64,000 nt of DNA, from IMG/VR virus record IMGVR_UViG_3300045988_052780. One strand, written 5' to 3'. Shown one piece after another: positions 5,901-34,859 of the stretch. The position numbers and the translations under genes were made by a program. Source of the DNA: a virus. A model generated the notes under the pieces. It was given only the letters and a program-made list of their open reading frames with translations, searched no databases and was not told the DNA's origin. Positions within the stretch are counted from its first letter, which is position 1. Each line of letters starts with the position of its first letter.

Positions 5901-6911
5901 AACTTTACCTACAGGGTTATTTCCGGCGTATTCTGCAAATTCAGAGCTACTAAATTTAAGAGGTCGTCCTTGTGGTACTACAGAGCGCATTTCATATCGT
6001 CTGTTATATATTCCAGGGTATAACTGCTCATATCTATCACCATGACTAAATCCTCTCTTAGCTTCATTATTACTAATAGGTTTAATATTACTGGTAGCTT
6101 TATTAAAGAATACTCTCTTAATAATTGGATTCTCTCCGAATATGTACTGAGCTACTAAGTTTCTGCCCTCTAAATTACCTCCACCAAGTATAGAAGCTCC
6201 AGCATAATCAGATGGGTTACCTTTAATTTCTGACAAAGTAACGGAAGCATTTCCTTTAGTTCTCTTAGCTGTCTTATATGCGGCAACTTTAAGAGGGAGT
6301 TTCTCCACACCTTGTAGAAATGGAGCCAATCTATTAGTAACAGCCATACCTATATTACTTGCAGTTCTGGCTTCTTTATTAAATATCCAATGATTCTTAT
6401 TAATAGGATTCCAAGCTAAATCAGCATCTCCCTTAATAAACTTGGACAATAAATTCTTTTGATCTAATCTATAACCTGCTGCACCTCCTATAATAGCACC
6501 TGGATTTGTATACTGAGCAATTTCTGATGGAATACCAGTAGTTCTTTCTACCATATTACCCCATCCCCCAGTTAACTTATCAATACCAAATCCATAACCA
6601 GCACCCTTAGCTAAAGCTATTGGAGTGGTTACTAGTGCTGCACCAGCTGCTGAAGGAAGTATTGTTCGCTCTATACCTACTAAGGGATTAGTCTCATTAC
6701 TCATGGAAGCTTTGAATCTTTCTTTAGCTCCTTTAATAGGATGTAGATAATCTTTATTTCTCTCAGCGGGAGTTCTAGTATCATTAGACGGAGTACCACC
6801 AAGGTCGACAAGTTCGTATTTCCTAGGTGTTACCCTAAGTCTTTCAAATACCTTTGGCTTAACTACTGCCGTATTGTCAACCTTGGCGGTATCCTCTTTT
6901 ACCTTAGACAT
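2931..6911 (-). CDS. Giant multidomain protein (1326 aa) containing a GH73 glucosaminidase (FlgJ/mannosyl-glycoprotein endo-beta-N-acetylglucosaminidase-like) peptidoglycan hydrolase domain
   Basis: Uninterrupted 3.98-kb ORF. The internal segment NAIRMLVSQDALESAWGRSAQGKFNFGNLT...FRSYNSMDEYAADKVQFLKRLY matches the glucosaminidase family signature (AQAALESGWGxS ... NxFGI ... FRxYxS). The rest has no recognisable motifs. Confidence 0.75.
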   Translation of the reverse strand: MSKVKEDTAKVDNTAVVKPKVFERLRVTPRKYELVDLGGTPSNDTRTPAERNKDYLHPIKGAKERFKASMSNETNPLVGIERTILPSAAGAALVTTPIALAKGAGYGFGIDKLTGGWGNMVERTTGIPSEIAQYTNPGAIIGGAAGYRLDQKNLLSKFIKGDADLAWNPINKNHWIFNKEARTASNIGMAVTNRLAPFLQGVEKLPLKVAAYKTAKRTKGNASVTLSEIKGNPSDYAGASILGGGNLEGRNLVAQYIFGENPIIKRVFFNKATSNIKPISNNEAKRGFSHGDRYEQLYPGIYNRRYEMRSVVPQGRPLKFSSSEFAEYAGNNPVGKVIGKEGDMIMRTGDTEFMVFRNPGTNYVGPIDDVGGHVIKLQMDKGKLKQTSQDMWKFNPADYAKRWNESPNAPDQVRLTKQAALMDKVGTPFILQQSNPIWIEGRSVRQAMKVGGKFTFKKSPAVKDAEKLNGKRDMRKKFIKSSRPTYKRRIRKGQVGMRFVSYVPVNNPTIDYTDITNPINPFSEYYIPTTYNTEQALVVPEREDSKSDTVEETPAVASKPIAELVVNKPVASKVVVDNTANSTWSSPYKDRSKWMADLTNAYKRAGITNDNAIRMLVSQDALESAWGRSAQGKFNFGNLTTGAKWKGDYVTGNDKNAKGEAIKQKFRSYNSMDEYAADKVQFLKRLYDFEENDDINKFVAKLTGSNKGKRRYAEARNYADTLKKVYNSYRSGGIIKYQNPAQPIKYMGGYDKRGNMVLPVTNENGMNNVTLPEVTVTPRNINLAGAVDRGRREAAPYISTLLAGTMFGPLPVLSEAIGSTTVDEATRELSKGKYNTWGDMMTNAGMNPVLAEFTNPGSYIGLHGFNKFGPRLKPVEDLAASGNKWARARVISKAINKGTPSVEPLPNNVGWGPRQSIHVVHDKNSARFPKLYYPERWDAVYEGAPEAGIWYQGKFGNPRTAANHSIPGKAEKAAKARERFAKRPYRVEGDLELERPIVTVGDVPNRAALERAADKMNADGVIFNNVYDNGYSNNQVIFSFRDNLKNGRLFKKEANTLASNKYPPYDMAVNYNPDRSLNVDKVHRDVARGTKEAIDFLESDIKKETDLYNKKLAQRLGYKHFTPYSKGAERARVEVVPDYDKISYPNSGDAGKVTLNSNPAEDILSYNVFYNLHPTSFHETLHRGLYGMISRDKMPIGGNLFEHIGRKTDTRDFYSFKTKKLLVPENEAPDLTTYNYLFEEGEAAANTMELGKRLGLKPGQEYPGRKALEQMLKEFSESGNEHSHMPSYLNMRHPKRVWDALTGRYFIYPTAVGTTLIGGANNDNDK
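4790..5115 (-). other. GH73 glucosaminidase domain within the 1326-aa protein
   Basis: Reverse-complement translation of 5040-5100 gives ...NDNAIRMLVSQDALESAWGRSAQGKFNFG. Reverse-complement of 4861-4920 gives KFRSYNSMDEYAADKVQFLK. Confidence 0.65.
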
Positions 6912-6929
6912 AAATACAATCTTTAATAA

Positions 6930-7307
6930 TTATAAGTAATTAATCCATCTATATTGAAACACCTTTCTGTTGTAATTAGGATCAGCCCCTGCTGCTCTAG
7001 ATTCTTTCTCAAAAGATATAGCTCTATAAGCTTTATGACTATCAGCCATAATTAGCAGTCTAATTAACCACTCAATCACATACCATAAATAATAGAATAT
7101 GATTCCCATCTCAATAATTTGTTTAGTGTGAGTTACTTCATGTCGTACCGTTGAATCAGTCATTCTATCTATTGCTGATTCATTTCTAGTAAATAGAATA
7201 CCACAGATATTCATATACTGATATCCTTTTACTGGAAGTAACGGATTTATGAAGAACAATAGTTTCCTTTGCTTATCGTACTTAAATTTCATAACTAGTG
7301 CTTCCAT
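6930..7307 (-). CDS. Small membrane-associated protein with an HExxH motif (HEVTH), a putative zinc-metallopeptidase-like protein (125 aa)
   Basis: ORF with HEVTHTKQ followed by a hydrophobic helix (IIFYYLWYVIEWLIRLLIM). Immediately upstream of the giant gene in the same operon. Confidence 0.4.
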   Translation of the reverse strand: MEALVMKFKYDKQRKLLFFINPLLPVKGYQYMNICGILFTRNESAIDRMTDSTVRHEVTHTKQIIEMGIIFYYLWYVIEWLIRLLIMADSHKAYRAISFEKESRAAGADPNYNRKVFQYRWINYL

Positions 7308-27656: not shown

Positions 27657-30257
27657 ATGGCAATTAATAAGAAGTTAATTCACTTTAAGAATAAAGAAGC
27701 TTTTGATAGAGAGCTTCAAGCTGGAAACATAATGGACACTTCTATCTGTTGGATTCCAGACGCCAAATTTATTTACACCAGAGGAACTTATTGGTATTGC
27801 TCATCTAAATCTGATGCTGAAATTCAGCAATTGATATCTGACATAGAGACTCAGCTTAGCAATAAAGTTGATAAGGTAGAAGGTAAAGGACTTTCTACTA
27901 ATGACTTTACTGATGATTTATTAAATCTACTAAAGAAAGTAAGTAAGCCTCTTAACTATAAAGGTTCAGTTCCTACATATAATGACTTGCCCACTGAAGG
28001 TAATTTGGAAGGAGATGTATGGAATGTTACTAAAACAGATGTTAATTATGCATGGAATGGTACTGACTGGGATCCATTTGGTTCGTCAGCAGTGAATATT
28101 GTAGATGACCTTACTACTGGAGGAGCGACTGCTGCTCTATCTGCTGAACAGGGTAAAGTACTCAAAGGATTAGTTGATACTAAAGTAGACAAAGTATCTG
28201 GTAAACAACTCTCAACTAATGATTATACCACTGCTGAAAAGAATAAACTAGCAGGATTATCTAATTACAATGATGCAGACTTAAAAGCAAGCATTAAACT
28301 TAATTCCGATAACATAGCATCTATGGATGCAGCTTATAAGGCTGCTGATGAAGTTCTTCAGGATAATATAGATGCAGAGAAAGTTGCTCGTACTGCTGCT
28401 GACAGTAAATTACAGAACGATATTAGTGCAGAAGAGACTAGGGCTGTGTTAGCTGAATCTGAGAATTTGGCTGTTATTAAGGCAGAGACAGAAAGAGCTA
28501 AAGCAGCAGAAGACGAAATCAGAGCTGTTGCTGGAGGCAGTAGTACTGCCGATGGTGGGGATATTCCTATCTGTCCTTTATATAGACAAGCTAATGTAAT
28601 GTATACTAAAGTACCAGAAAATATCAAAGATACAGCTACTCTTGCAGCATACATTATGTGTTATAACAAGCCTTACATAGGCAAGCCTATCAATAGAATT
28701 AAAATGATGCTTGCCACTCCAGGTAGATGTAGAATCTCCATCTTCAATGAACATATCTTTGATGCTAATCCTACTTTAGAAGCTTCATTAGTTAAAGATT
28801 TAGTGAATGTCGTATGTACATCCACTGGTTATAAATATTGGGATTTAGATGAAGATGTAGTAGTAGAAGAGGGGCAATTCATTGGTGCTTGGTACACAGC
28901 TGATTGTGCTAGATATACTTACAATAATGATTTAACCTACCAGACTGCATATCCTTCTGGATGGGTTGGGAGAACCAACTTAACAACAGAAGCGATACCT
29001 AAAGAAGATTGGGAGAATAGACGTTCTTTAGGATATTTAAATGTAGGATTGTATCGTAGAGGTGATGGTTCAGACTTTGAATGGGGCAAGCTAGATGAAT
29101 CAGCAAATACTCGAAGCCGTGTTGATAATGCTTATTATCCCAGGGGACAGGAAAAGTTAGTAGGTAAAACCATCTACAAACTAAGATTGAAGGTTTTAAC
29201 AGTAGGCTATTTGACTATTAACCTAATTAATAACTACGGTAAAGCTAATGCTAAAGTTCTTAAATCTTGGAAATTGTACATTAGGCAATTAGGAGTCCAG
29301 ACAGTGAGACTTCCAGAGGACATTACTTTAGAAGCCGGGCAGGGTATCGGAGTGTATGCAGAAGGTGATACCTGTGCTTTTGCTTATGGAGGAACGCCAT
29401 TCGGAACTAAATACGCATTAAATGGATGGTACCAATATACAGCACATAATTATGCTACAACTCCTGGAGGAAACACTAACCAGCCTTTAGGAATTGCTCT
29501 TATCGAAAGAGGTAGTAAACTATCATCCTTAGAAGATAAAACTATATCTATTCAAGGAGACTCAATTAGCACATTTGCAGGAACTATTACTGATGGTAAT
29601 GCAACTTACTACAGTGCATCTCACAAGTTTGTTAATAGTATTGATGCTACATGGTGGGGATTACTTATTAATGAGTGCAGAATGAGACTTATCAGAAACG
29701 ATGCATGGTCTGGCTCTAGAATCAGTGGTACTGGAGATAATGCTATGTGTAGTGTAGCCAGATGTTCCAATATAAAGCATATTAATTCGACAGTGGATAC
29801 ATATCAATATGGAGCTCCTGAAATCATAGTCGTAATGGCTGGAACTAATGACGTGTCTGGTAATGTAGAAATGGGAACAGCTGATGGAGCCGTTACTACC
29901 TATATGGGAGCATTTAAAACTATGCTTGCTAATCTAAAATCGCAATGCAGAAATGCCAAAATAGTAGTATTCCAATTGTATAGAGGTAATGTTTTAGACT
30001 ATGCTAATAGTGGTGGTAAGCACCAATATGAATATCAAGAAGCTATGGCAAATTTATGTAGAAGATATGGAGTTTACTATATAGGCCCGGAACATTTTGA
30101 CTTAAGCTTTCCAAACCTACAGTATTATACTTGTGATAACAGTTTAAGTGATTATGGACCTCTTACTTACACTAGTGCAGATTATCTACATCCTAACATG
30201 CAAGGTATGGAAAGAGTTTATGCTGGAGTTAGGGCTTATTTAGAGAGTTTATATTAA
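27657..30257 (+). CDS. Tail fiber or receptor-binding protein with a C-terminal SGNH/GDSL hydrolase (esterase) domain (866 aa)
   Basis: N-terminus homologous to other fibers (IHFKNKEAF...IPDAKFIYTRGTYW). C-terminal blocks GDSIS (I), AGTNDV (III) and DYLHPN (V) of the SGNH hydrolase family. Confidence 0.65.
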   Translation: MAINKKLIHFKNKEAFDRELQAGNIMDTSICWIPDAKFIYTRGTYWYCSSKSDAEIQQLISDIETQLSNKVDKVEGKGLSTNDFTDDLLNLLKKVSKPLNYKGSVPTYNDLPTEGNLEGDVWNVTKTDVNYAWNGTDWDPFGSSAVNIVDDLTTGGATAALSAEQGKVLKGLVDTKVDKVSGKQLSTNDYTTAEKNKLAGLSNYNDADLKASIKLNSDNIASMDAAYKAADEVLQDNIDAEKVARTAADSKLQNDISAEETRAVLAESENLAVIKAETERAKAAEDEIRAVAGGSSTADGGDIPICPLYRQANVMYTKVPENIKDTATLAAYIMCYNKPYIGKPINRIKMMLATPGRCRISIFNEHIFDANPTLEASLVKDLVNVVCTSTGYKYWDLDEDVVVEEGQFIGAWYTADCARYTYNNDLTYQTAYPSGWVGRTNLTTEAIPKEDWENRRSLGYLNVGLYRRGDGSDFEWGKLDESANTRSRVDNAYYPRGQEKLVGKTIYKLRLKVLTVGYLTINLINNYGKANAKVLKSWKLYIRQLGVQTVRLPEDITLEAGQGIGVYAEGDTCAFAYGGTPFGTKYALNGWYQYTAHNYATTPGGNTNQPLGIALIERGSKLSSLEDKTISIQGDSISTFAGTITDGNATYYSASHKFVNSIDATWWGLLINECRMRLIRNDAWSGSRISGTGDNAMCSVARCSNIKHINSTVDTYQYGAPEIIVVMAGTNDVSGNVEMGTADGAVTTYMGAFKTMLANLKSQCRNAKIVVFQLYRGNVLDYANSGGKHQYEYQEAMANLCRRYGVYYIGPEHFDLSFPNLQYYTCDNSLSDYGPLTYTSADYLHPNMQGMERVYAGVRAYLESLY
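29540..30257 (+). other. SGNH/GDSL esterase domain
   Basis: GDS at 29566-29574. GTND near 29841-29855. DxxH (DYLHPN) near 30181-30200. Confidence 0.6.
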
Positions 30258-30274
30258 TAAATATGTTATAAATA

Positions 30275-30285
30275 GGGGGGGGGGG
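30275..30285. repeat. Homopolymeric G11 tract, part of the hairpin ggggc-att-gcccc (30281-30294), 35 nt upstream of the ATG at 30320
   Basis: Counted directly: aatag + 11 G + cattgcccc. Extremely unusual for this AT-rich genome. Confidence 0.9.
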
Positions 30286-30319
30286 CATTGCCCCTTCCTC
30301 CTGTAATTACTAAGTAATT

Positions 30320-30733
30320 ATGGGACAAATAACTGGTAAAGACAATAATAGAGTTCCTACCGTGAAAGAATGTAATGATGCTTATGGTGGCAATTATATG
30401 ACAGAAAGTCAGGTAGCTGAAGCAATAAGTGATGCAACAGCTAATTTTTTGACCTCATCCGATTTCCAAATGTCATTCGGTGCTGCCAGTGGATATATTA
30501 AGTTCCCAAATGGATTTATGATACAGGCAGGTCACGGTGGAAGACAAACTACAGGCAGACAAAGTTTGAGTTTTTATACTCCATTTCCAACCAAATGTGT
30601 TGCTGTAGTAGTATCAGGAGAACGAAGTGGGGATGGAGCTAATGGTTATAACTATGTATATAATGTAACCAGATACGGTTTTGAAGTTTCCTTTGATAAA
30701 TCACCTGGTTATTATATAGCAATTGGATATTAA
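30320..30733 (+). CDS. Small fiber-tip-like protein, paralog A (137 aa)
   Basis: ORF. N-terminus MGQITGKDNNRVPTVKECNDAYGG is paralogous to the N-terminus of the next gene. Confidence 0.5.
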   Translation: MGQITGKDNNRVPTVKECNDAYGGNYMTESQVAEAISDATANFLTSSDFQMSFGAASGYIKFPNGFMIQAGHGGRQTTGRQSLSFYTPFPTKCVAVVVSGERSGDGANGYNYVYNVTRYGFEVSFDKSPGYYIAIGY

Positions 30734-30736
30734 AAT

Positions 30737-31157
30737 ATGGGATATATTACTAATTTGAGTTCAAATAGAACCCCCACAGTCCAAGCTTGTAATGAAGCAT
30801 ATGGTTTCGATGCAGGTTCTATATCGGGGGGGGATTACTTTAGGACCACATGATTCTAATAGGTTCATGATTAATGTGTATTATACTACACCAGTAGATT
30901 TGAGAACAATTTTAAAAGATACAGACCCAATTAATTGTGTATATGCATTTATAATTGTTGCTGAAGAAGTTTATCATACTGTCTGGCTGTATAGAGGGTC
31001 AGATGGTAAGTTTAAGCCTAATGGCTCTTGTTATAAAGATAACGATGGATATAGATTACATCTGCATATACAATGGCACAGCGATGGTACAGCAAGTTAC
31101 GAACATATATATTTGCAGCCTGACGGCTATACTATTGAGGCAAATTGGGTAGAATAA
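30737..31157 (+). pseudogene. Small fiber-tip-like protein, paralog B, split by a frameshift at a G8 tract. G7 would restore a single protein of about 140 aa. Candidate phase-variable gene or homopolymer sequencing error.
   Basis: The N-terminal 38 codons (30737-30853, MGYITNLSSNRTPTVQACNEAYGFDAGSISGGDYFRTT*) are paralogous to gene A. They continue in the -1 frame as the ORF 30792-31157. I translated across the tract by hand. Confidence 0.55.
30826..30833 (+). repeat. Homopolymeric G8 tract at the frameshift point of paralog B
   Basis: Counted directly (atatc + 8 G + attac). Confidence 0.9.
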
Positions 31158-31209
31158 GACACTAGTACTTCCATGGTGTCTATAATTAATAACTTAAACA
31201 TTTATAACT

Positions 31210-33150
31210 ATGGCGGCAGAAGACCCTAGGTTTCTATTGCATTTCAAGACTTTAGCTAAGTTTAATGAGAAACTAGCTGATGGTACAGTGAGTGCAGACA
31301 AGCATCTAGTATTTATTAAGGATGCTAAGCAAGTATGGTTCAAAGGAACATATTATGCAGATAATGTTAAGATGGATGGTATTACTGACTTCTATAATGG
31401 CTGGAGTATCACTCAGAGCAGTGCTACTACTCTAACTATAACTCTTACTGGCAAGAGATGGAATGCTAACACAAGAGCGTGGGGGGCTATTAGTAAACCT
31501 CTATCTGTTAACTCTGTTACTCAGTCTGTAGCAGGACTTATGAGTGCAGCAGATAAAGTTAAATTGGATGGATTGAATATTAATAACGTTAGTAATATAT
31601 CATTCTCATCAAATGCAGCTAAAGTAACAGCAACTATCAGCAAAGATAATGGTAATGCGGCTGATACTTCTACAACTGTGAATTTACCAGTAGCATCCTC
31701 TACTAGTGCAGGTTCTATGAGTGCTACTGACAAGATAGAATTAGATAGAATTAGTACTGCTAACTTTGCTCTTGGAGCAGTAACTCCTACTACATCTACT
31801 GTGGGAATAGCTGCTAGTAAGACTACTATCTCTAGTGGAGCTAGTGCAGCCAACAACATTACTCTTCCAGCAGCTACTCAGTCAGTGGCAGGTGTAATGA
31901 CAGCAGCAGATAAAGTTAAATTGGATGTTACACTTCCCAATTTAATCGATAGCAACAAAACTAATATAGATAATTACACTGTTAACGGCTTTAAAATTTC
32001 TACTAACCCTGTATTAGATGGAGCTGATATCAAAATAACTGGATACACCAAACCTTCTACTACTGGAGCTTTAGCGGCCGCTGATAGTGTCAATGGTGCT
32101 CTTGGTAAGTTAGAGAAGAAATTGGATGATGAAGTAACTAGCAGAACTAATGCTGTTTCAAATCTTACCAATACAGTAAATAGTAATAAGAGTACTATTG
32201 ACAATTATACTATTAACGGTGCTAAAATCTCTACTAACCCTAAAATAACTGTAACAGTAGGAGGATCTGGTAATGCTGTAACTACAGCTTCATTTAGTGG
32301 GACTGTGCTGACTCTTACTAAGGGAGCTACGTACAATAACTACTCTCATCCAGCTGGTTCTGGGGCTAGTAAATCTACTGGCTTGTATAAATTTAGTACA
32401 GATAGTACTAGTCATATCAGTGGTGTTACAGCAGTAACTAAATCTGATATAACTGCCTTAGGTATTCCTAGCTCTGATACTAATACTACTTACAGTTTCT
32501 CAAGTGGAAATGGTGGCTTTACTGTAACTCCTAGTGGAGGTTCCTCACAGACAGTATCAATAGGTAAGCCTTCTACAGCAGGTACAGCAGACAAAGTAGC
32601 TAATACATTAACCTTTACTGGTTATCAATCTAAATCGTATAATGGATCTGCTGCTGTAAGTGTAGCTATTCCTAGTAAAGTCAGTGACCTAACTAATGAT
32701 AGTGGGTATATTACTAGTTACACAGATACTAAGAATACTGCTGGCTCAACTAACAGTTCGAGTAAATTATATTTAATTGGAGCTACATCCCAAGCTTCTA
32801 GTCCTGTTACTTATTCTAATTCAGGAGTATATACACAAAGTGGTGCTGTTTATGCATCTGCTGGGTTCTATGATACTTCAGACATGAGAGTAAAGGATAA
32901 CATAGAATCCATAGATGTATCTAAAGCTGATAAAATACGATTAGTAGAATTTGATAGAACAGACAGAGAACATCATGGCTATGGAGTTATAGCTCAAGAA
33001 CTTGAAACCGTATACCCATCAATGGTTAATACCGATGAGAATGGCTTTAAGACAGTTAACTATAGTGAAATATATGCAGTTAAAATAAAGTATCTTGAAG
33101 ATAAAATTGCAGCTTTAGAAGCCGTAGTCGATAAATTAATAAGTAAATAA
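31210..33150 (+). CDS. Tail fiber protein with a C-terminal intramolecular-chaperone auto-processing domain (Peptidase S74-like), 646 aa
   Basis: C-terminus YDTS|DMRVKDNIESIDV...GYGVIAQELETVYPSMV matches the S|DxRxKxNI autocleavage signature of endosialidase and T5 L-shaped fibre chaperone domains. N-terminus paralogous to the other fibers. Ser/Thr-rich shaft. Confidence 0.7.
   Translation: MAAEDPRFLLHFKTLAKFNEKLADGTVSADKHLVFIKDAKQVWFKGTYYADNVKMDGITDFYNGWSITQSSATTLTITLTGKRWNANTRAWGAISKPLSVNSVTQSVAGLMSAADKVKLDGLNINNVSNISFSSNAAKVTATISKDNGNAADTSTTVNLPVASSTSAGSMSATDKIELDRISTANFALGAVTPTTSTVGIAASKTTISSGASAANNITLPAATQSVAGVMTAADKVKLDVTLPNLIDSNKTNIDNYTVNGFKISTNPVLDGADIKITGYTKPSTTGALAAADSVNGALGKLEKKLDDEVTSRTNAVSNLTNTVNSNKSTIDNYTINGAKISTNPKITVTVGGSGNAVTTASFSGTVLTLTKGATYNNYSHPAGSGASKSTGLYKFSTDSTSHISGVTAVTKSDITALGIPSSDTNTTYSFSSGNGGFTVTPSGGSSQTVSIGKPSTAGTADKVANTLTFTGYQSKSYNGSAAVSVAIPSKVSDLTNDSGYITSYTDTKNTAGSTNSSSKLYLIGATSQASSPVTYSNSGVYTQSGAVYASAGFYDTSDMRVKDNIESIDVSKADKIRLVEFDRTDREHHGYGVIAQELETVYPSMVNTDENGFKTVNYSEIYAVKIKYLEDKIAALEAVVDKLISK
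32881..33150 (+). other. C-terminal intramolecular chaperone domain. Predicted autocleavage between S (32878-32880) and D (32881-32883).
   Basis: SDMRVKDNI motif. Confidence 0.6.
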
Positions 33151-33152
33151 TT

Positions 33153-34859
33153 ATGGCAAATAAAGTAGCATCTAAACGATGGATTTATTCAAACTTCTCT
33201 GTAGGAAGCTCTAGTAATGAATGTGCTACTAAAACTGAAATTCTGGGATTTGGATTGTATATAACTAATGATTCTAGTTATGCATCTAATCAACTAGTAA
33301 GGGAGGAAGATATTTACCTTCCAGCTTGGACATATTCTTTCTCAGTTTCTAATTGGGATAAAAATGTTGGAGAATCTGGTGGAACTACTTCCTCTATTAG
33401 TATATCTTCAAGCAAATCCAGACTAGGAACAACTGAAAGTGTAGGATGGAGTATAGATTCTTCTACAGTACCTAGCTGGATTACTTGGAATTCGTCAAGT
33501 ATGACGTTTACAGTAGCATCAAATAGTAGTACCTCGTCCAGAACTGCTAATATCTATTTCGAGCAGGATGAATCCGGTAAGAGAGATTACGCTAGAGTTA
33601 CTCAGGCTGGACATACTCAAGTTACTACCTATAATTATGTCTTTTGGACATCAACTAGTGGTGGTACATCAACTAGTGGTTCATTTGGACAATCTGGAAG
33701 TAGTATTCAGCCCCAAATTTATAGCTACAGAGAAACAATAGTAGATGGTACAGTAACTTCACGTGATGCAATAAGTTTTAGCTATACTGACAAACCTAGT
33801 TGGATTACTGGAGAAGCTGTTAGTACAGGTTATAATCCTCCTAACTCCCCTACGTATTATGCTAAAATGACAGCATCAGAGAATACTTCAGTAGATGCTA
33901 GAAGTTATGATGTAGTTATAACTCAGAGTGGTTCTGATAAGGAAATTACTATCTCAGTAAGCCAGCCTGGTAAAGCTAATGAGTACACGTTTGAAATTAG
34001 GAAATCTGATGAGGAATATACTGGTAAAACAAGTATTACATTTGATGTTCCTGCAAGCACTGTTGGTTGGTCTGGAAACTATGCATATAGATCTAGGAAG
34101 AATGGAGAACAATTTGCTAATGTAAGCTTCTCATCTAGTGCGAGCTGGCTTCACGTTGAAAGTAGTGGTGCATACACTGTAGATCATAATACAGGTAGCT
34201 CATCTAGATCCGGTACTATTACATTAACTCAAGCTGAGTCTGGATTAAAATGTTATGTTTATATTAATCAAAGCGGTTATACTCCTACATATACGTTTAA
34301 TGTATCTCCAACAAATTTAAGTGTGACTGCGGCGGAAACTAATGAGACTCTTACAGTGAATTCTTATAAGACTGTACTTGAAAGCGACGGTAGTGAAACT
34401 ACAGAATCTCTAGATTACGAATTCTCGTCAGATGCAAGTTGGGTTAATGCTGCGAGAACTACAACCAACACTACGTATATAACTATAGCAGAAAACTTAA
34501 CAATTGTCAAGAGAAATGCTAAGATTACTTTAACCCAAGCAGAGAGTGGCGCTCAAGCATTTACCAATGTTACCCAAGCTGGGAAAGTACAATCTGATAA
34601 TAAGTTAACTATTACAAGTGTAACTTATGAAGATGCATACCTATTTCCACCAGGAATAACACCAGTTGTAGGTTCTGAAGTATACTTAAAGGTCATACTT
34701 CCGAATACATTTACTTGGAAAACTTCTTCTGGATTGGCTATGAACAGAGGAACAGCTTATGCTGGAGATATATGTAATATTTATGTATTTGAAAATAGTA
34801 GATATAAGTTAGTTAAATCCTTTAAGTTACAAACTGGAAAACAAACTGTTAACATATAA
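33153..34859 (+). CDS. Ser/Thr-rich tail-associated protein with three BACON-like (Ig-like carbohydrate-binding) repeats (568 aa)
   Basis: Three repeats ending SRTANIYFEQDESGKRDYARVTQAG, SRSGTITLTQAESGLKCYVYINQSG and RNAKITLTQAESGAQAFTNVTQAG. Each has a conserved W about 40-50 aa upstream. This is reminiscent of BACON domains known from Bacteroides and crAssphage proteins. Confidence 0.5.
   Translation: MANKVASKRWIYSNFSVGSSSNECATKTEILGFGLYITNDSSYASNQLVREEDIYLPAWTYSFSVSNWDKNVGESGGTTSSISISSSKSRLGTTESVGWSIDSSTVPSWITWNSSSMTFTVASNSSTSSRTANIYFEQDESGKRDYARVTQAGHTQVTTYNYVFWTSTSGGTSTSGSFGQSGSSIQPQIYSYRETIVDGTVTSRDAISFSYTDKPSWITGEAVSTGYNPPNSPTYYAKMTASENTSVDARSYDVVITQSGSDKEITISVSQPGKANEYTFEIRKSDEEYTGKTSITFDVPASTVGWSGNYAYRSRKNGEQFANVSFSSSASWLHVESSGAYTVDHNTGSSSRSGTITLTQAESGLKCYVYINQSGYTPTYTFNVSPTNLSVTAAETNETLTVNSYKTVLESDGSETTESLDYEFSSDASWVNAARTTTNTTYITIAENLTIVKRNAKITLTQAESGAQAFTNVTQAGKVQSDNKLTITSVTYEDAYLFPPGITPVVGSEVYLKVILPNTFTWKTSSGLAMNRGTAYAGDICNIYVFENSRYKLVKSFKLQTGKQTVNI

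Follow-up and report, generated by a model that had tools for sequence, protein, structure and literature searches.

Poly-G tracts of variable length at a tandem array of fibre-tip-type genes in a crAss-related human-gut phage: candidate phase-variable loci

Introduction

Simple repeats that switch genes by changing length are known from bacterial contingency loci, such as the poly-G/C tracts of Campylobacter, Neisseria and Haemophilus (e.g. PMC6321876, PMC3025981), which lie within genes as well as in promoters and leaders. The phages Mu (G segment, Gin) and P1 (C segment, Cin) vary their tail fibres by another route, the inversion of a DNA segment by a site-specific recombinase. In Fletchervirus, changes in polyG length reportedly switch the expression of receptor-binding genes and yield phenotypically mixed progeny. 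Hypermutable polyG tracts have been reported in Campylobacter phages (Sorensen et al. 2021, Cell Rep 35:109214, cited in PMC10877375), and contingency loci have been described in the coliphages T2 and T4, where simple-sequence repeats (SSRs) undergo reversible frameshifts by polymerase slippage and bet-hedging has been proposed (Gomez, Barrick, Waters 2025 preprint, PMC12633550). Among the genes that carry the T2/T4 tracts are agt and rIIA; in the tail fibres of coliphages, SSRs are under-represented (PMC12633550). Diversity-generating retroelements (DGRs) are found on tail-fibre genes of crAss-like phages of the zeta and epsilon groups (PMC12386605, PMC11054128). Here, we describe two G tracts at a tandem pair of fibre-tip-type genes, paralogs A and B, in the IMG/VR virus record IMGVR_UViG_3300045988_052780, from which a stretch of 64,000 nucleotides (nt), hereafter the window, was analysed. 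The favoured explanation, to which a probability of roughly 0.6 is given, is that the G runs are hypermutable contingency (phase-variable) loci, kept by selection at a variable tandem array of such genes.

The locus resembles each of these systems in part. As in Fletchervirus, poly-G runs are associated with phage genes of the fibre or receptor-binding type; unlike Fletchervirus, the phage is crAss-related with probably a Bacteroidota host, the tract lies at a module junction where it encodes a glycine linker, and the genes are tandem paralogs with a paired non-coding leader tract and cassette deletions, all of which is known here from sequence alone. With T2 and T4 it shares simple-sequence repeats in phage genes, but here these are G runs, at one fibre-tip locus of an SSR-poor genome. 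The ON and OFF frame classes, the polymorphism between near-identical genomes and the purifying selection on the switched gene are all features of bacterial contingency loci, from which the present locus differs in being virus-encoded and in coupling the array to cassette shuffling. A constant N-terminal part combined with alternative C-terminal receptor-binding parts recalls Mu and P1, the change here being a frameshift and not an inversion. As with the DGRs of crAss-like phages, the tips of tail fibres are the target of diversification, and in the same broad phage group, but the window contains no template repeat or reverse transcriptase (RT) motif and the variation is not adenine-specific.

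An account of the window made from its letters only (the sequence-only reading) had known of no such architecture in Bacteroidota phages. This stands for crAss-like phages, as full-text searches gave no description of homopolymer or polyG switching in that group, and does not stand for the mechanism, which is known from Campylobacter phages and from T2/T4. What dedicated papers report for the epsilon and zeta groups is DGRs and recoding (PMC12386605, PMC11054128). The distinctive properties of this locus are the placement of the tract at a junction and linker, the tandem paralogs and the tract-mediated loss of cassettes.

Results and discussion

Two G tracts at a tandem pair of genes

The tracts and the genes to which they belong are located in the window as follows (aa, amino acids).

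30258..30319, + strand: non-coding leader of paralog A, 62 nt, near-invariant in 24 relatives apart from the tract
30275..30285, + strand: upstream poly-G tract, G11 here and G8-G11 in relatives
30320..30733, + strand: paralog A, 137 aa, in which the shared N-module (aa 1-24) and a short helical neck precede the Gp53-like_C fibre-tip domain (aa 61-137)
30737..30853, + strand: paralog B frame 1, 38 aa, with the shared N-module, the glycine linker and a premature stop in the G8 (OFF) state
30826..30833, + strand: internal poly-G tract, G8, at the junction of the N-module and the C-terminal domain (C-domain), encoding a linker of two to four glycines
30834..31157, + strand: C-domain frame of paralog B, 107 codons and a stop, beta-rich and under purifying selection

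A run-length census of the 64 kb found two runs of G or C of at least 7, these being the upstream tract and the internal tract. The next longest was G6 at 31481-31486, and C runs of at least 6 were absent; for independent, identically distributed bases 0.12 runs of at least G8 and 0.001 of at least G11 are expected in the window. Runs of at least 6 numbered four in total (∼0.06 per kb) and were concentrated at one fibre-tip locus. The census bears out the statement of the sequence-only reading that the window is otherwise without long G or C runs, and the background goes even further than that statement, A and T runs being depleted as well. A runs of at least 6 numbered zero against ∼77 expected at 35% G+C, and a single T6 was found against ∼31 expected. 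This A/T deficit was graded from length 4 up and is therefore not a truncation artefact. In the first 100 kb (1-100000) of the relative MT835470.1, the terminase of which is 93% identical, three A runs and eight T runs of at least 6 were observed against 52 and 92 expected respectively, and G/C runs of at least 6 numbered zero. Homopolymer depletion was milder in the typical crassvirus cr52_1 than in the window lineage.

The N-modules of A and B form a 42-nt direct repeat with 74% identity, and the motif NRxPTVxxCNxAYG occurs within the window in A and B only, in agreement with the common N-terminus and divergent C-termini first reported. The listing of open reading frames (ORFs) likewise agrees that G8 splits paralog B, as frame 1 ends after 38 aa and a +1-offset frame is open over 30792-31157. 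On translation, the removal of one G (G7) generated a B protein of 139 aa and G10 generated one of 140 aa, where ∼140 aa had been proposed for these two lengths, and natural alleles with these products exist: G7 in locus L015, G10 in L001 and L016, and the protein P0001, which has 139 aa and is 99% identical. Paralog A has no internal G tract, the Gly-Gly at the equivalent place being encoded by GGT GGC.

Some minor observations concern the runs themselves. A slippage-prone replication or transcription machinery may be the cause of the avoidance of A/T homopolymers. The G6 run at 31481-31486, which is located in the gene for a 646-aa fibre, is missing from all relatives examined and is probably a chance run outside the system. 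The 10 nt preceding each of the two tracts are alike (GTTATAAATA and GTTCTATATC, 30265-30282 and 30816-30833), a match too short to interpret; an older module junction might have left the upstream tract behind as a relic.

Tract length varies between close wild genomes

Relatives were collected as six IMG/VR contigs and seventeen metagenome loci, by protein-guided and DNA-pattern scans, and five more loci were added by protein look-up, giving ∼28 related loci (L numbers) from independent assemblies. A G run was present at the homologous positions in every locus that covers them. In a first tally the upstream tract was G8 in six loci, G9 in five, G10 in four and G11 in four, the extra loci adding G8 and G9. 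The internal tract was G6 in two, G7 in four, G8 in six, G9 in three, G10 in five and G11 in two, the extra loci adding G7, G10 and G11. Database B proteins with GG, GGG and GGGG linkers (139, 140 and 141 aa respectively) imply G7, G10 and G13. By translation, B was ON in L001, L002, L015, L016 and L036 and OFF in the window and in ∼14 other loci, and both OFF frame classes were present. In the protein collection (clusters carry P numbers), B was full length in ∼19 of 58 clusters and A, from the same kinds of assemblies, in 37 of 43; many C-terminal-only gene calls were found for B.

Between pairs of loci diverged by 1% or less, small indels within ∼6 kb were restricted to the two tracts, and most such pairs differed there. 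L017 and L018 are distinguished by 3 G and by two substitutions only, the coverage of L018 being 1.6x. Both tracts are hypervariable in length between close wild genomes and the internal tract toggles the frame of B, a conclusion that is supported by these comparisons. Among the properties by which contingency loci are recognized, these were present: a tract within an ORF or leader, length polymorphism in near-identical genomes, and natural ON and OFF alleles.

The sequence-only reading had allowed for a homopolymer sequencing error, in which case the variation would be an artefact of sequencing or assembly and the true genome would have one fixed, in-frame length. Errors are frequent in long G runs, the coverage of several related contigs is low (1.6-8x) and the L017/L018 pair fits with such an error. 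However, the ∼28 independent assemblies gave lengths from 6 to 11, and paralog A was almost always intact in the same assemblies. Since the short lengths G6-G8, which are reliable, also differ, L015 is covered 273x and the ∼6 kb flanks are free of other small indels, sequencing error is not the whole explanation. The comparison across assemblies rejects it as the sole cause, and it is considered exceedingly improbable that error accounts for the locus.

A second, minor slippery site lies upstream of the internal tract.

30771..30775, + strand: C5 run inside the N-module of paralog B, C4, C6 or C7 in some relatives

Some forms of B shift frame at this run and shift back at the G run. When C4 or C7 is combined with a G tract of the +1 class, the frame is open but its middle is scrambled (P0016, P0017, P0036), and C6 gives an early stop (L021, L027).

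Evidence of selection on the tract and on the switched gene

The 107-codon frame downstream of the tract was intact in 11 OFF alleles. The ratio of non-synonymous to synonymous substitution rates (dN/dS) in the C-domain was 0.15-0.2, pairs of OFF alleles included (dS ∼0.4). GGG was the rarest glycine codon, comprising 5.6% of the 1124 glycine codons in 29 window ORFs, and of the 86 Gly-Gly pairs in these ORFs GGG-GGG accounted for 0. Judged by dN/dS, by codon usage and by the persistence of the tract in a divergent lineage as well as in a third paralog (C, described below), the gene and the tract look as if they have been selectively retained.

Third-position changes run right up to the tract, through ITLGPHDSNRF, which argues that translation enters the domain via the tract and not from an internal Met. 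This bears on a further reading frame within paralog B.

30792..31157, + strand: frame-2 ORF, 121 aa, with an ATG created inside N-module codons

Speculatively, this ORF encodes a product without the N-module in the +1 OFF state. More generally, the C-domain might be made alone from internal starts, either the frame-2 ATGs of the CNEAYG codons or the Met of NRFMINV, with the tract serving only to add the N-module. Frame-2 ATGs are found upstream of the tract in the window (30792), in most +1 alleles and in paralog C, and in the deletion variants L006 and L024, which lack an N-module, the C-domain ORF is still intact. In contrast, the frame-2 stretch of L003 is broken by a stop between these ATGs and the tract, the +2-class alleles have no such start, and conservation of the synonymous type extends upstream of the internal Met as far as the tract. 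Internal initiation is therefore regarded as very unlikely.

Long homopolymers are known sites of RNA polymerase slippage, which counts in favour of recoded expression, whereby full-length B would be made from out-of-frame genomes by such slippage or by +1 ribosomal frameshifting. The conserved downstream frame of the OFF alleles would be explained in this way, as would the predominance of the +1 class (G8, G11 and equivalents), to which paralog C of L026 and L032 also belongs. However, in-frame alleles are common, and close relatives fall into all three classes (0, +1 and +2), which leaves no single conserved configuration of the kind that a programmed frameshift would show. Recoding appears quite unlikely as the explanation, and it could coexist with variation at the DNA level.

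A third paralog and the rearrangement of cassettes

A third paralog, C, was identified between A and B in three loci, where the same N-module is followed by a different C-terminal module of ∼190 aa.

L026, 2325-2997: paralog C, N-module MGLILNKDDNRCPTVKECNDAFGNNS, C-terminal module unrelated
L032, 2783-3433: paralog C, with N-module and unrelated C-terminal module as above
L031, ∼2359: paralog C, with N-module as above

In L026 and L032 paralog C carries a G9 tract at the corresponding module junction and is OFF by +1 in both. In L031 a different sequence follows the N-module, and it gave no G run of at least 6. L032 retains all three tracts even though the C-domain of its paralog B is just 53% identical.

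Cassettes have also been lost and fused. In L006 (3997-4006) and L024 (47-56) the upstream tract is joined to the post-tract part of B, with A and the N-module of B deleted, which leaves the C-domain ORF without an upstream start. The N-module of C is fused to the C-domain of B at the tract in L002 and P0021. Single-cassette chimeras, in which the N-module of A is fused to B, were found in L036 (2501-2923), L037, L038 (2437-2860), P0002, P0007 and P0024; the crossover lies inside the 42-nt N-module repeat, and the P0002 cluster is the largest, with 512 member sequences. Owing to the deletions, the fusions and the extra cassette, copy number ranges from 1 to 3. The tracts and the N-module repeats act as recombination junctions which delete or fuse cassettes. 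The sequence-only reading had missed this range of cassettes, the tract of paralog C and the deletion junctions at the tracts, as well as the published precedent in Campylobacter phages.

Domain matches and structural models of paralogs A and B

Residues 61-137 of paralog A matched Pfam PF21882 (Gp53-like_C) with 46.5 bits (cut-off 24.9, E 5.6e-12). Paralog A also matches tail-fibre PHROGs, and PF21882 is precomputed on at least 35 of its homologues. An AlphaFold2 (AF2) model of paralog A, with a mean predicted local distance difference test score (pLDDT) of 71, was matched by Foldseek to the C-terminal regions of R-type pyocin fibres (6CL6, 6CT8, 6CXB and 6CL5; E 8e-5 to 6e-4, probability 1.00). 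Paralog A is therefore like the R-type pyocin fibre and Gp53-like_C in both its Pfam and its fold match, and unlike them in being a mini-protein of 137 aa and not the end of a long fibre; B gave no such match. The proposal that the paralogs are fibre-tip or adhesin-like, for which HHpred and AlphaFold had been suggested as a check, is supported for A and not shown for the C-domain of B.

In the AF2 model of fused B the C-domain (aa 41-139) is beta-rich with pLDDT 80-92, and the N-module and the glycine linker are of low confidence. The model suggests that the linker is probably a flexible segment between the N-module and the confidently predicted C-domain.

Within the C-domain a variable loop, CYKDNDGYRLHLHIQWHSDG (31035-31105, B codons ∼67-90), has a ratio of non-synonymous to synonymous polymorphism (pN/pS) of 0.47, as opposed to 0.06-0.16 in the rest of the domain. 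Many in-frame deletions of the loop are present in database alleles; its variation is not specific to adenines, and there is no sign of a template repeat.

Two other diversification systems were considered and set aside. For a diversity-generating retroelement, no second copy of the C-domain or template repeat and no RT motif were found in the window (64 kb of ∼180 kb), and the substitutions are not A-specific. For an invertible segment of the Gin/Cin type, all cassettes lie on one strand and the short inverted repeats present (at most 82% complementary) do not flank alternative cassettes; an invertase was not searched for.

The upstream tract and the leader of paralog A

The upstream tract is located 34 nt ahead of the ATG of paralog A, in a leader predicted to form two hairpins.

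30274..30302, + strand: predicted hairpin 1, A-G11-C, loop AUU, G-CCCCUUCCUCC-U, 13 pairs (G-C and G-U)
30303..30321, + strand: predicted hairpin 2, GUAAUUAC-UAA-GUAAUUAU, abutting or overlapping the AUG of paralog A

The predicted fold of 30250-30330 has a minimum free energy of -29 kcal/mol (z -2.95). It retains the GGGGC/GCCCC hairpin that had been proposed for G11 and extends it to 13 pairs, with the whole G run facing CCCCUUCCUCC. The closing pair of hairpin 1 is C-G in the window, T-A in L002 and C/A in L001. Refolding with different G lengths indicated that the length of the hairpin 1 stem is set by that of the tract. With 10 G or fewer, the CCU triplet is predicted to pair with the GGG past the AUG, generating a longer start-codon hairpin; with 11 or more, the G run is predicted to take the CCU. 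The natural lengths of 8-11 straddle this 10/11 boundary. No leader family was found in Rfam, which gave one sub-threshold chance match elsewhere. The leader motif was not found elsewhere in the window, nor was a recurrent promoter or terminator motif. These folding models point to a tract whose length may tune paralog A rather than switch it, and this is the weakest of the conclusions.

The contingency explanation and the evidence against it

If the G runs are contingency loci, each cassette would consist of a conserved N-module of 25-30 aa, a putative docking peptide, and a different C-terminal domain. In B and C the module junction would be built of GGG codons as a flexible glycine linker, and polymerase slippage would alter the length of the run. 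G7, G10 and G13 would join the N-module to the C-domain through 2, 3 or 4 glycines (ON), these in-frame changes in length being absorbed by the flexible linker, and other lengths would stop translation after ∼35-39 aa (OFF). Progeny would therefore be mixed for the tip domains that can be mounted, and in this way hedged against variation in the surfaces of hosts. The upstream tract would act as the 5' arm of the leader hairpin, its length of 8-11 shifting the CCU pairing to the start-codon hairpin and tuning A. The tracts and the repeated N-modules would also recombine, with the deletion or fusion of cassettes. Slippage as the cause of the changes in length is our inference, as are their reversibility, docking by the N-module, a receptor-binding function of B and any influence of the upstream tract. 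The slipped-strand phase variation of receptor-binding tips that had been proposed is upheld in part, namely as to hypervariable tracts, ON and OFF alleles, retention of the tracts and a tip-like A, and is not upheld as to a fold match for B.

Several findings weigh against this explanation. ON alleles are a minority (∼5 of 20 DNA loci), near the 1/3 expected for an unconstrained frame. Further deletions or frameshifts are present in many of the database alleles of B, as would also suit a dispensable gene, and such extra lesions weaken the case for selection. The polymorphism was seen between assemblies and not at the level of reads within one lysate, and the coverage of some of these contigs is low, as given above for error-prone G runs. 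The C-domain of B has no Pfam or PHROG family and no significant fold match in the PDB or BFVD; in neither sequence nor fold was a resemblance to known fibre tips or adhesins found. When 1.84 billion representatives were searched with a profile for distant homologues of B, 11 matches were returned, all from its own lineage except for one spurious repeat protein. As the C-domain is without a family or fold match, what points to a receptor-binding tip is its gene context and the N-module shared with A. In the leader, the predicted differences in energy between tract lengths are small, and there was no covariation support for the hairpins, the arms of which are identical in 24 loci; because the arms are invariant, covariation cannot test the folding.

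Some of these findings would also be expected if B were dispensable and decaying, with the poly-G a mere mutational hot spot in a glycine linker and without an adaptive role. Most alleles are OFF, with about the random 1/3 ON; L017, L018, L027 and L028 are among the many alleles whose C-domain has additional deletions or frameshifts; the loss of whole cassettes is tolerated (L006, L024); and B is an orphan limited to its lineage. However, a dN/dS of 0.15-0.2 at a dS of 0.4 among OFF alleles, 11 of them with the downstream frame intact, argues against decay, as does the retention of the tract, which every locus has and which paralog C and a divergent lineage share, although GGG is the rarest glycine codon and homopolymers are avoided genome-wide. 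Decay is considered unlikely.

A broader form of the contingency explanation is offered tentatively, at slightly less than even odds. The locus would be a combinatorial contingency system in a dominant human-gut lineage (crAss-related, probably zeta), in which up to three independent poly-G switches, one in the leader hairpin and one at each junction of docking module and tip, choose the tips that can be mounted. The same tracts and modules would reshuffle the array, and the retained tracts would be deliberately kept, making the system a viral counterpart of the phase variation of capsules and surfaces in Bacteroidales hosts. As almost all other homopolymers have been purged, slippage appears to be strongly mutagenic and the few tracts, on this proposal, to have been kept deliberately.

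If the contingency explanation is correct, a phage-encoded hypermutable tip switch would represent heritable bet-hedging on the side of the virus and would help to explain the long-term coexistence of phage and host. Because gene callers split or drop such genes, a tip gene that looks frameshifted in a phage assembled from a metagenome should not be written off as an error. That the lineage is nearly free of other homopolymers is a separate puzzle, relating to the fidelity of replication or transcription.

Genomic setting and phage lineage

Two tail-fibre genes border the array.

27657..30257, + strand: tail-fibre protein of 866 aa with fibre repeats and a C-terminal SGNH/GDSL esterase domain (Pfam Phage_fiber_rpt and Lipase_GDSL_2; PHROG tail fibre)
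31210..33150, + strand: tail fibre of 646 aa with a C-terminal S74 intramolecular chaperone (Pfam, PHROG)

The 646-aa fibre is followed by a protein with four BACON domains (Pfam/PHROG), and a terminase, a portal, a major head protein and a fibre of 1892 aa are also encoded in the window. The terminase is ∼30% identical to those of Crassvirales, and the related contigs, from human gut metagenomes, are 166-186 kb in length. The zeta group has the largest genomes of the crAss-like phages (PMC7886860, PMC12386605). The lineage is that of a crAss-related human-gut phage of roughly 175-185 kb, which we infer to belong to the zeta group, and the host phylum is probably Bacteroidota. No tRNAs were found in the window and its ORFs are long under the standard code, so that there is no sign of suppressor coding. 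Against GenBank phages, megablast gave no match to the locus, and tblastn gave none for B and one weak match for A.

The spacer that follows paralog B (31158-31209) contains an inverted repeat, AGACAC...GTGTCT (∼31158-31182). Like the leader of A, the whole spacer is almost unchanged across relatives and may be a conserved element that punctuates the fibre genes. In the 568-aa BACON-repeat protein, a 301+8-bp indel distinguishes L001 (∼6870-7180) from the window (∼33600-33610) and from L016, the phages being otherwise 99% identical; this looks like a change in the copy number of a repeat unit.

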